Below are positions 48,677 through 49,495 of a stretch of 64,000 nucleotides of DNA, in pieces (within the stretch, counting starts at the first letter, position 1; each line of letters starts with the position of its first letter). Source of the stretch: Escherichia coli (GTDB taxonomy: Bacteria; Pseudomonadota; Gammaproteobacteria; Enterobacterales; Enterobacteriaceae); the NCBI RefSeq assembly GCF_003334785.1, contig NZ_QOWV01000002.1; one strand, written 5' to 3'. The notes beneath the pieces are model-generated. The model saw only the letters and a program-made list of their open reading frames with translations. It ran no database searches and was not told where the DNA came from. The position numbers and the translations under genes are program-made.

Positions 48677-49495
48677 ATGCAGCTAAGAATTACCAGTCGA
48701 AAAAAACTCACCTCTCTATTATGCGCTCTTGGGCTAATTTCCATCGTTGCAATTTATCCGCGTCAGACGGTGAATTTTTTCTATTCGACAGCAGTTCAGA
48801 TTACAGACTACATCCACTTCTACGGTTATCGCCCGGTTAAATCTTTCGCTATTCGCATTCCTGCCAGTTACACCATTCACGGAATAGATGTTTCGCGCTG
48901 GCAGGAGCGGATCGACTGGCAGCGGGTGGCAAAAATGCGCGACAACGGTATCCGCTTACAGTTTGCTTTTATTAAGGCGACGGAAGGCGAAAAGCTGGTG
49001 GACCCCTATTTTTCGCGTAACTGGCAACTAAGCCGCGAAAATGGCCTGCTGCGTGGGGCGTATCATTATTTCTCCCCGTCGGTATCCGCTTCAGTTCAGG
49101 CGAGATTATTTCTGCAAACGGTGGATTTCTCACAAGGCGATTTCCCTGCCGTGCTGGACGTAGAAGAACGGGGAAAATTATCGGCAAAAGAATTACGCAA
49201 GCGGGTAAGTCAGTGGCTAAAAATGGTCGAAAAAAGTACGGGGAAAAAGCCGATTATTTACTCAGGAGCCGTTTTTTATCACACCAATCTGGCGGGCTAT
49301 TTCAATGAATATCCGTGGTGGGTGGCTCACTACTATCAACGTCGTCCGGACAATGACGGAATGGCCTGGCGCTTCTGGCAGCATTCCGACCGTGGACAGG
49401 TAGATGGCATCAATGGTCCGGTGGATTTTAATGTATTTAATGGCACGGTGGAGGAGTTGCAGGCATTCGTTGATGGGATTAAAGAAACGCCTTAA
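48677..49495 (+). CDS. yegX: glycoside hydrolase family 25 (lysozyme-like) protein with N-terminal membrane anchor
   Basis: Track ORF 48668..49495; start moved to MQLRITSRKKLTSLLCALGLISIVAI... (272 aa); GH25-like sequence. Confidence 0.8.
   Translation: MQLRITSRKKLTSLLCALGLISIVAIYPRQTVNFFYSTAVQITDYIHFYGYRPVKSFAIRIPASYTIHGIDVSRWQERIDWQRVAKMRDNGIRLQFAFIKATEGEKLVDPYFSRNWQLSRENGLLRGAYHYFSPSVSASVQARLFLQTVDFSQGDFPAVLDVEERGKLSAKELRKRVSQWLKMVEKSTGKKPIIYSGAVFYHTNLAGYFNEYPWWVAHYYQRRPDNDGMAWRFWQHSDRGQVDGINGPVDFNVFNGTVEELQAFVDGIKETP

Follow-up and report, generated by a model that had tools for sequence, protein, structure and literature searches.

The gene yegX, which occupies 48677..49495 (+) of a stretch of 64,000 nucleotides from Escherichia coli (the window; assembly GCF_003334785.1, contig NZ_QOWV01000002.1), most likely encodes a type II, inner-membrane-tethered periplasmic N-acetylmuramidase, as judged from its sequence features. 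The explanation that accounts best for the findings as a whole, i.e., a tethered periplasmic muramidase of glycoside hydrolase family 25 (GH25) that is of Bacteroidota-type origin and serves accessory remodelling, is regarded as moderately probable. In the protein, a 10-residue basic tail, a 17-residue hydrophobic helix, a conserved stalk of about 35 residues and a complete GH25 barrel follow each other. The gene itself is real, ordinary and already known. The open reading frame, listed with 272 amino acids plus stop, is identical to E. coli yegX (K-12 b2102), as a preliminary description of this DNA had proposed, and shares position and length with the K-12 gene and the RefSeq model. It carries the labels "putative glycosyl hydrolase YegX" in K-12 and "yegX: glycoside hydrolase family 25 protein" in RefSeq. 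A Shine-Dalgarno-like AGGGA, read from the sequence at 48664..48668 (+), lies 8-9 nt 5' of the ATG at 48677, and this spacing favours the start at 48677 over the in-frame ATG at 48668 (MKPMQL...). The latter was rejected, as it lacks RBS spacing and as the orthologues and the RefSeq model begin with MQL.

The catalytic domain at 48884..49411 (+), i.e., residues 70-245, matches the Pfam model PF01183 over its whole length (positions 1-180 of 180, E = 1.3e-54), and the structural barrel extends over approximately residues 65-264 in sequence alignments to PDB entries. The best of these PDB sequence matches are all GH25 lysozymes (2wag, 9.5e-33; 4kru, 1.3e-28; 1jfx, 4.2e-27). The AF2 model of YegX features a mean pLDDT of 90.2, and a Foldseek search with this predicted model as the query returned 1jfx and 2wag as best matches (target-normalised TM 0.80-0.85, rmsd 2.2-2.7 Å), with the first 20 PDB matches all being GH25 structures (lowest E 7.9e-19). 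On the level of the model, YegX thus appears to adopt the irregular (beta/alpha)5(beta)3 barrel by which GH25 is recognised. Likewise, PF01183 is annotated on all of the best 120 relatives among the matches listed. The NCBIfam profiles gave no match to YegX.

In the phmmer alignment to 1jfx, Asp71 (GAT, 48887..48889, +) corresponds to D9 of Cellosyl, and the D-x-E motif Asp161-Val162-Glu163 (GAC-GTA-GAA, 49157..49165, +) corresponds to D98 and E100. The residues equivalent to D9, D98 and E100 are presumably the catalytic ones, by analogy with the structures of Cellosyl and Cpl-1. D71 does not vary in either of the family alignments (16 and 48 sequences), while D161 and E163 are invariant in the larger one and at least 90% conserved in the smaller; the aromatic residues of the substrate groove are likewise invariant. 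The HMM match and the presence of D71, D161 and E163 together bear out the GH25 assignment of the preliminary description. Cellosyl (Streptomyces coelicolor muramidase M1, 1JFX) and BaGH25c (Bacillus anthracis, 2WAG) share the catalytic domain with YegX at 32-33% identity, and the Asp and Asp-x-Glu residues of Cellosyl align exactly. Both are secreted, soluble enzymes whose deposited chains consist of catalytic domains of about 217-220 aa, whereas YegX adds a tail, a transmembrane segment and a stalk and is predicted to reside in the periplasm of a Gram-negative cell.

These additions make up the N-terminal part of the protein. The predicted cytoplasmic tail (48677..48706, +; residues 1-10, MQLRITSRKK) contains four basic residues (R4, R8, K9, K10) and zero acidic ones. 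It is followed by a predicted signal-anchor or transmembrane segment found by hydropathy scan (48707..48757, +; residues 11-27, LTSLLCALGLISIVAIY), in agreement with the hydrophobic segment noticed in the preliminary description; the AF2 model places a helix at residues 8-26. The family-specific juxtamembrane stalk (48758..48868, +; residues 28-64) is modelled as a helix rich in aromatic residues (28-48) followed by a small beta-hairpin (51-62), with a pLDDT of 73-92. Nothing in the solved GH25 structures corresponds to it, and the sequence alignments with these begin at residue 65. From E. coli to Sphingobacteriia, P62 is invariant in the alignments and Y51 and F57 are nearly so. The layout of basic tail, single transmembrane segment and conserved stalk was found in 48 of 48 aligned relatives from three phyla or classes, each with 2-18 K/R preceding a hydrophobic stretch of 17-23 aa. 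As the net charge after the YegX helix is about zero and the tail is basic, the positive-inside rule suggests an N-in orientation. One hydrophobic helix close to the N-terminus and preceded by positive charges, as predicted from sequence and the AF2 model, is the pattern of a bitopic (type II) protein. A lipoprotein was also considered and rejected, since the lipobox [LVI][ASTVI][GAS]C is missing and the sole N-terminal Cys stands in S-L-L-C16 with Leu at -1. A lipobox-like TIGC is present in two Neisseriales homologues.

The nature of the hydrophobic segment decides whether YegX could instead be a soluble or releasable periplasmic lysozyme, i.e., a latent autolysin with a cleavable Sec signal peptide or a SAR-like anchor that would be released under some condition, e.g., loss of the proton-motive force. 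The stretch is short, with only 17 aa, and moderately hydrophobic, with seven residues being Gly, Ala, Ser, Thr or Cys, and small residues occupy possible -3/-1 positions (IVA|IY in E. coli, ACA|F in Salmonella). On an approximate hydrophobicity scale, the 17 residues sum to -1.15. P1 Lyz and R21 lie at about -0.2 to +0.15 with their SAR domains and a strong transmembrane segment at -4.9 on this scale, so that YegX falls between the two but nearer to the SAR domains. In this respect, YegX resembles the SAR endolysins (P1 Lyz, R21 of phage 21), in which a moderately hydrophobic, small-residue-rich N-terminal segment also precedes a muramidase domain. SAR endolysins are lysis proteins of phages that come with a (pin)holin partner and typically contain T4-lysozyme-like domains, whereas yegX belongs to the core chromosome, encodes a GH25 domain on a conserved stalk and has no lysis partners: no holin, pinholin, spanin or lysis cassette was found beside it among the neighbours examined in the window and in K-12. 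Furthermore, a polar c-region is missing, and many Bacteroidota homologues feature clearly hydrophobic helices rich in Leu, Ile and Val. Conservation between phyla extends from the residues directly after the segment over the whole stalk (S-P-F-Y-Y-G in Sphingobacteriia; Y51, F57 and P62 throughout), which is unusual for a cleaved signal peptide and counts against cleavage, so that the segment is argued to be retained. Release of YegX is thus considered unlikely, and a stable tether is preferred.

With regard to the origin of the gene, the preliminary description had suggested YegX to be a domesticated enzyme. In the sense of a phage derivation, this would mean a GH25 lysis gene of a decayed prophage that was co-opted by the host, and GH25 is common among endolysins. 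In addition, YegX matches the PHROG endolysin profiles phrog_291 (1e-46) and phrog_6219 (5e-38), and 163 phage records match it by tblastn. However, the genuine phage matches among the latter reach at most 37% identity, cover the catalytic domain only and come from phages of Gram-positive hosts, whereas the two best-covering "phage" records examined were mislabelled bacterial chromosomal contigs (Acinetobacter, Bacteroidales). A further profile, phrog_23704 ("unknown function"), matches residues 153-272 at 5e-83; it is taken to be a family of truncated E. coli or Shigella yegX fragments from prophage predictions and to be no evidence of phage origin. Phage GH25 endolysins such as Psm of Clostridium phage phiSM101 (4KRU/4KRT), Cpl-1 and the enzyme of Geobacillus phage TP-84 share fold and motif with YegX at 31-37% identity over the barrel. 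Unlike YegX, the endolysins of TP-84, Bacillus phages and phiSM101 have no N-terminal transmembrane segment, and the phiSM101 enzyme, with a chain of 353 aa, carries an extra C-terminal domain (Pfam PF08239). Besides, the endolysin genes of TP-84 and Bacillus phages adjoin holin genes, whereas yegX has no such neighbours.

The locus itself also argues against a phage source. In the window, thiM, thiD, yegX and yegW (now named GgaR) follow each other on one strand and yegVUT lie on the other, an order that matches K-12 b2098-b2104 exactly but in reversed orientation. The wider neighbours are the yeh fimbrial genes, rcnRAB, thiMD, yegW, yegVUT, fbaB and the gat operon. No phage genes occur in the K-12 annotation within about 13 kb on one side and about 16 kb on the other, nor within 20 kb on either side in one strain with a 100% identical yegX, so that the position between thiD and yegW in a core, non-phage context holds as first described. 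In Salmonella and E. fergusonii the context is also non-phage and the same or similar, and neither phage genes nor att-like remnants were found around yegX in these two or in E. coli. The GC content of yegX (48.1%) is near that of the host (window, 50.4%). In a simple neighbour-joining tree, the anchored family splits from the phage endolysins, which form the outgroup, with a bootstrap of 100. A phage derivation is therefore considered extremely improbable, and the word "domesticated" does not apply in this sense, as the nearest relatives of yegX are chromosomal genes with the full architecture.

These relatives point to a Bacteroidota-type source. The architecture of tail, transmembrane segment, stalk and GH25 domain characterises a chromosomal family centred on Sphingobacteriia, whereas Proteobacteria carry it only sporadically, namely in Escherichia, a minority of Salmonella and a few uncultured Neisseriales. 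The contigs of the latter were placed near Crenobacter and Vogesella by a DnaB search. Full-length homologues with 45-58% identity and the four-part layout of YegX, all of them uncharacterised, occur in Sphingobacteriia and Chitinophagia (Pedobacter, Solitalea, Anseongella, Mucilaginibacter) and in Chromobacteriaceae-like Neisseriales. The tails of the Bacteroidota homologues are much longer and more basic (8-18 K/R versus four in E. coli), and relatives in Sphingobacteriia, Chitinophagales and Neisseriales reside in housekeeping chromosomal contexts. In the tree, enterobacteria and Neisseriales form a group (bootstrap 97) that is nested among Bacteroidota with moderate support only (65-80). 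The shared architecture in Sphingobacteriia and the sporadic distribution in Proteobacteria point to an ancient inter-phylum transfer. Accordingly, yegX is probably an old resident of the Escherichia/Salmonella lineage that was horizontally acquired from a Bacteroidota-type chromosomal family and not from a phage, with the direction of transfer being inferred. The narrow enterobacterial and neisserial spread inside a mostly Bacteroidota family would neatly illustrate how a gene transferred between phyla turned into a core gene.

Within E. coli, 5425 of 5426 complete genomes carry yegX. When 60 genomes were sampled at even spacing, 55 matches were uninterrupted and exactly 819 bp long; of the remaining five, one contains an IS1 insertion, three differ slightly in length and one is partial. 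Among Escherichia species and Salmonella, the dN/dS of 0.06-0.16 indicates purifying selection, and the dS of yegX tracks that of the flanking thiM, thiD and yegW. A recent foreign island was rejected on the grounds of this agreement in dS, the near-host GC content, a GC3 of 50.9% that lies inside the range of the neighbours and the lack of integrase, tRNA or repeat features flanking yegX in the window. IS insertions in several strains and truncated forms in Shigella show that the gene is dispensable.

Taken together, YegX would be a bitopic inner-membrane protein of type II with N-in/C-out orientation, in which the basic cytoplasmic tail and one transmembrane helix hold the stalk and a GH25 (Chalaropsis-type) barrel in the periplasm. 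There, it would most likely hydrolyse the beta-1,4 MurNAc-GlcNAc bond of peptidoglycan by means of Asp71 and Asp161-x-Glu163. The products would carry reducing MurNAc ends, as opposed to the 1,6-anhydro ends generated by the lytic transglycosylases of E. coli. From the short stalk at the inner membrane we infer that membrane-proximal glycan strands, either nascent or un-crosslinked, would be the probable substrates rather than the whole sacculus. A functional analogy is offered by MltG and further glycan cleavers that E. coli tethers to its inner membrane, with a single N-terminal transmembrane segment and a periplasmic glycan-cleaving domain, as predicted for YegX. The domain of MltG is a lytic transglycosylase of YceG fold that yields 1,6-anhydroMurNAc ends, whereas that of YegX is a GH25 hydrolase, with no YceG domain according to Pfam. 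The tethering of MltG-type cleavers plausibly limits their action to membrane-proximal strands.

The physiological role of YegX would be that of a non-essential accessory remodelling enzyme. Glycan-strand cleavage in E. coli is classically credited to lytic transglycosylases, and a true hydrolase that is conserved, under selection and tethered to the membrane would fill a small gap in the inventory of cell-wall enzymes in this organism. A farther-reaching version, which is judged improbable, is that YegX represents the only housekeeping hydrolytic muramidase of E. coli. Following an ancient transfer from Bacteroidota to Proteobacteria, it would have become core because of a tethered trimming or release of nascent or aberrant glycans, with reducing-end MurNAc fragments that bypass the recycling and signalling of anhydro-muropeptides. 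Broader consequences are not expected, as the annotation exists already and the fold prediction is unsurprising.

The searchable literature mentions YegX only incidentally, in the lists of screens, and the search revealed no work on its biochemistry, localisation or phenotype. Published screens include Keio deletion mutants of yegX, with hits that are weak and not related to the cell wall (sensitivity to boric acid and epetraborole). Together with the dispensability of the gene, these hits outside the cell wall would suit a cryptic YegX or one with another substrate, i.e., a different glycan or imported or foreign murein fragments to be scavenged. Such a role is considered quite unlikely, because a cryptic gene is not expected under such strong purifying selection and the active-site and groove residues are invariant. 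No characterised GH25 enzyme is known to be anything but a muramidase. A functional link to thiMD or to GgaR and yegTUV might also be conceivable under this alternative, given that thiMD, yegX and yegW share one strand and are separated by short spacers in which no terminator was detected. This association is not conserved, however, since yegX of Salmonella sits across thiMD, on the opposite side compared to E. coli, and the genes downstream of yegX in E. fergusonii differ from those in E. coli. Likewise, regulation by GgaR (YegW) was rejected, as the ChIP paper on GgaR gives yegTUV as its sole target and yegX is absent from the text.

The expression of yegX may start from either of two sources. 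The spacer between thiD and yegX (48613..48676, +) comprises 64 bp and is the probable site of a promoter of its own. An RpoD-holoenzyme binding site is reported in this spacer, with the promoter sequence not being given (PMC3946193). A consensus scan for promoters and terminators over 46800-50400 found nothing in the thiD-yegX and yegX-yegW spacers, with counts at shuffle level, and the lack of a detected promoter or terminator in the former means that read-through from thiMD may occur. As context, a TPP riboswitch (46896..46992, +; Rfam RF00059, 71.2 bits, E = 7.9e-13) lies 5' of thiM and controls thiMD on the same strand upstream of yegX.

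The gene yegX encodes a protein of 272 amino acids which is best supported as a predicted type-II, inner-membrane-tethered periplasmic N-acetylmuramidase, a reading in which the fold and the catalytic residues are shown, as are its architecture, selection and distribution, and in which export, activity, substrate and role are inferred. The six-frame ORF list places the gene on the plus strand, from the ATG at 48677 to the end of the stop codon at 49495. The sole Shine-Dalgarno-like element, AGGGA at 48664-48668 (+), lies 8-9 nt from this ATG, a spacing that favors 48677 over an alternative in-frame ATG nine bases upstream (48668), which overlaps the AGGGA and was rejected. 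In K-12, whose region of roughly 2.17-2.23 Mb corresponds to the reverse complement of the window, an identical gene is annotated (yegX, b2102, "putative glycosyl hydrolase YegX") with thiD and yegW (GgaR) flanking it, as the preliminary description had placed it. Further neighbors are yegVUT, fbaB and the gat operon on one side and thiM, rcnRAB and the yeh fimbrial operon on the other. The fimbrial adhesin gene yehA (window 43914-44948) features a GC content of 38.7% and a GC3 of 35%, markedly low against the window mean of 50.4%. The claimed lack of adjacent phage genes was likewise borne out, with none in the K-12 annotation of the neighborhood and none in the 20 kb to each side of the gene in a strain carrying a 100% identical yegX. 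The initial observation was thus confirmed throughout, and it was already known, since the gene and its GH25 assignment stand in the K-12 and RefSeq annotation. The present analysis adds a conserved four-part architecture, quantified selection and a non-phage, probably Bacteroidota, ancestry.

The domain search supports the GH25 assignment by a single Pfam domain, PF01183 (Glyco_hydro_25), at residues 70-245, which spans the entire model (1-180/180, E=1.3e-54). Searching the PDB by sequence returned GH25 lysozymes exclusively, among them those of B. anthracis (2WAG, 9.5e-33), the phiSM101 endolysin (4KRU, 1.3e-28) and the Streptomyces coelicolor muramidase Cellosyl (1JFX, 4.2e-27). The conserved catalytic acidic residues are present: in the 1JFX alignment, D71, D161 and E163 match D9, D98 and E100 of Cellosyl, which we take to be GH25 catalytic and neighboring-group residues. 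Across both family alignments D71 never varies, and neither do D161 and E163 in the alignment of 48 sequences. An AlphaFold2 model built on this 48-sequence alignment reached a mean pLDDT of 90.2, and the best 20 Foldseek matches of this predicted model in the PDB were all GH25 structures, led by 1JFX and 2WAG (target-normalized TM 0.80-0.85, rmsd 2.2-2.7 A). As every characterized GH25 enzyme is, to our knowledge, a muramidase, YegX would by default be expected to cleave MurNAc-beta-1,4-GlcNAc bonds.

The N-terminal hydrophobic segment ascribed to the protein was recovered as well. Residues 1-10 (MQLRITSRKK) carry four positive and no negative charges and are followed by the sole hydrophobic stretch of the protein, residues 11-27 (LTSLLCALGLISIVAIY); a lipobox is absent from the N-terminus. 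The AlphaFold2 model comprises a helix (8-26), an aromatic-rich helix (28-48) and a small hairpin (51-62) ahead of the barrel. All 48 aligned relatives share this layout: a basic tail (2-18 K/R) leads into a single hydrophobic stretch (17-23 residues), and a conserved juxtamembrane segment then precedes the GH25 domain. In the family alignments P62 is invariant and Y51 and F57 are near-invariant, and the Sphingobacteriia homologues feature a common S-P-F-Y-Y-G motif where the helix ends. The segment of E. coli itself is short, and its hydrophobicity, judged on a hydrophobicity scale against comparator sequences, is only moderate, so that cleavage or SAR-like release is conceivable. Nevertheless, a cleaved or releasable soluble lysozyme is considered unlikely. 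Conservation reaches up to and beyond the hydrophobic segment, which argues for a retained signal anchor (N-in, periplasmic catalytic domain) rather than a cleaved signal peptide. The GH25 domain of such a tethered muramidase would be exported to the periplasm and held there by this anchor, and the short stalk, by analogy with MltG, suggests that the enzyme may act on membrane-proximal strands.

All but one of 5426 complete E. coli genomes carry the gene (5425 genomes, with a median of one copy each), and one copy is plasmid-borne. In a sample drawn evenly down the match ranking, 55 of 60 matches were uninterrupted and exactly 819 bp long, the others comprising one IS1 insertion, three matches that differ slightly in length and one that is only partial. 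Independent insertions of IS1/IS1X2, IS5, IS903B and ISApl1 disrupt yegX in several complete genomes and many truncated forms occur in Shigella, which indicates that the gene is dispensable. That yegX is cryptic, or that its product acts on a non-murein substrate, is considered very unlikely. Pairwise dN/dS (Nei-Gojobori) among E. coli, E. whittamii, E. albertii, Escherichia sp., E. fergusonii and Salmonella amounts to 0.06-0.16, a constraint similar to that on thiM and about three times looser than that on thiD or yegW, while dS tracks the flanking thiM, thiD and yegW. The GC content (48.1%) is near that of the window (50.4%). Judged from these sequence data, yegX is a long-resident gene under selection and no decaying remnant.

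When each GTDB species was represented by one genome, close relatives turned up in Escherichia only, and the next matches, after a jump, were in Pedobacter, Sphingobacterium and Pontibacter. Among the best 120 matches from 5.8 billion proteins, nearly all named ones outside Escherichia/Shigella belong to Sphingobacteriia (45-52% identity, full length). Genuine phage endolysins match with at most 37% identity, over the domain only, and all stem from phages of Gram-positive hosts. A neighbor-joining tree (203 catalytic-domain columns, 100 bootstraps) separates the anchored family from phage endolysins (bootstrap 100). With its nearest relatives being chromosomal, the suggestion of a "domesticated" gene, read as a captured phage endolysin, is not supported and is considered extremely improbable. 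The two best-covering "phage" records examined were rejected as mislabeled bacterial chromosome: CAKLQH020000037.1 ("Acinetobacter phage MD-2021a") is an Acinetobacter contig with dinP-creBCD-yoaE, and MT838172.1 ("Bacteriophage sp.") a Bacteroidales-like contig with methyltransferase and outer-membrane protein genes. Each encodes a membrane-anchored GH25 homologue, the Acinetobacter one bearing the name "yegX: membrane-bound hydrolase". The last 120 residues of the protein (153-272) match the PHROG family phrog_23704 ("unknown function") along nearly all of its 134-position profile (E=5e-83), and this family was probably made from truncated yegX pieces in prophage predictions. Within the tree, enterobacteria are monophyletic (100) and group with the Neisseriales (97), and the proteobacterial clade falls among Bacteroidota (65-80). 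These sequences would be explained most simply by an ancient transfer in which a chromosomal gene of Bacteroidota entered Proteobacteria, the direction and number of inter-phylum transfers being only moderately supported.

Fixation of the transferred gene would predate the divergence of Escherichia and Salmonella, with a later relocation across thiMD in one lineage. The E. fergusonii homologue (P0009, 76% identity) lies in the order thiM-thiD-yegX with other genes downstream, two of them large and of the DUF6493/DUF7824/DUF7825 type and one encoding a SWIM domain, in place of yegW-yegVUT (contig L013, 1726-9226). There and in Escherichia sp. MOD1-EC7003 (L005), at whose yegX locus yegW was not found, YegX comprises 282 residues with a differing, longer C-terminal tail (...QNQNFGG/...QNQNLGG). 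The Salmonella enterica homologue (P0015, 67%; names including subsp. indica, salamae and some enterica) lies on the opposite side of thiMD in the order rcnB/yegX/thiM; on contig L012 (7038-10714), yegX occupies the place of E. coli rcnR-rcnA and thiD abuts yegW. The gene would have been either relocated around thiMD or inserted twice, and it is now restricted to a minority of Salmonella lineages. Homologues from uncultured Chromobacteriaceae-like Neisseriales (P0034, P0038, P0041; 55-58%) adjoin fnr, hemN and dnaB on contigs whose DnaB is 85% identical to that of Crenobacter. A Solitalea sp. contig (L015, 1770-7751) holds two GH25 paralogues with a GyrI-like gene between them, an M20 peptidase before and a YegS-type lipid kinase homologue two genes after the pair. 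An M20 peptidase also directly precedes a Neisseriales homologue (L014, 6461-8855); the recurrence may be fortuitous or may point to a weakly conserved association. A 275-bp contig attributed to Bacillus sanguinis (L011; 97% protein identity to the E. coli YegX N-terminus) is almost certainly E. coli contamination of that assembly.

Full-text literature searches turned up YegX in lists alone and found no study devoted to its biochemistry, structure or genetics. It is a predicted, uncharacterized cell-wall hydrolase in a model organism, easy to test and with a sequence that holds no surprises. The Keio yegX mutant shows weak sensitivity to boric acid (PMC11502571) and epetraborole (PMC12457515). 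In the 64-bp thiD-yegX spacer, a consensus scan detected no promoter or terminator; the sites of RpoD holoenzyme listed by a SELEX-chip study include one in this spacer (PMC3946193). An intergenic C-to-A mutation of heat-adapted E. coli, -36 from yegX and +29 from thiD (PMC12812777), maps to window 48641 (G on the window strand) within the hexamer TATTGT (48637-48642), which could be a candidate -10 element for yegX. The 51-bp yegX-yegW spacer contains TGaTATACT (49507-49515), a good extended -10 lying 32 nt before the yegW ATG and not reported by the hexamer-pair scan, which suggests a promoter of its own for yegW. In ChIP experiments, yegTUV was the sole GgaR target, and the paper makes no mention of yegX (PMC10819704). 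Upstream of thiM, a TPP riboswitch is located at 46896-46992. At this element, E. coli LR-06 (L026, 10475-18316) carries an inserted island of ~7.7 kb, absent from the window, which encodes a tyrosine integrase, an HNH endonuclease and a recombinase besides hypothetical proteins. The riboswitch is annotated twice in LR-06, once to either side of the island, which suggests that the thiM leader serves as an integration site.
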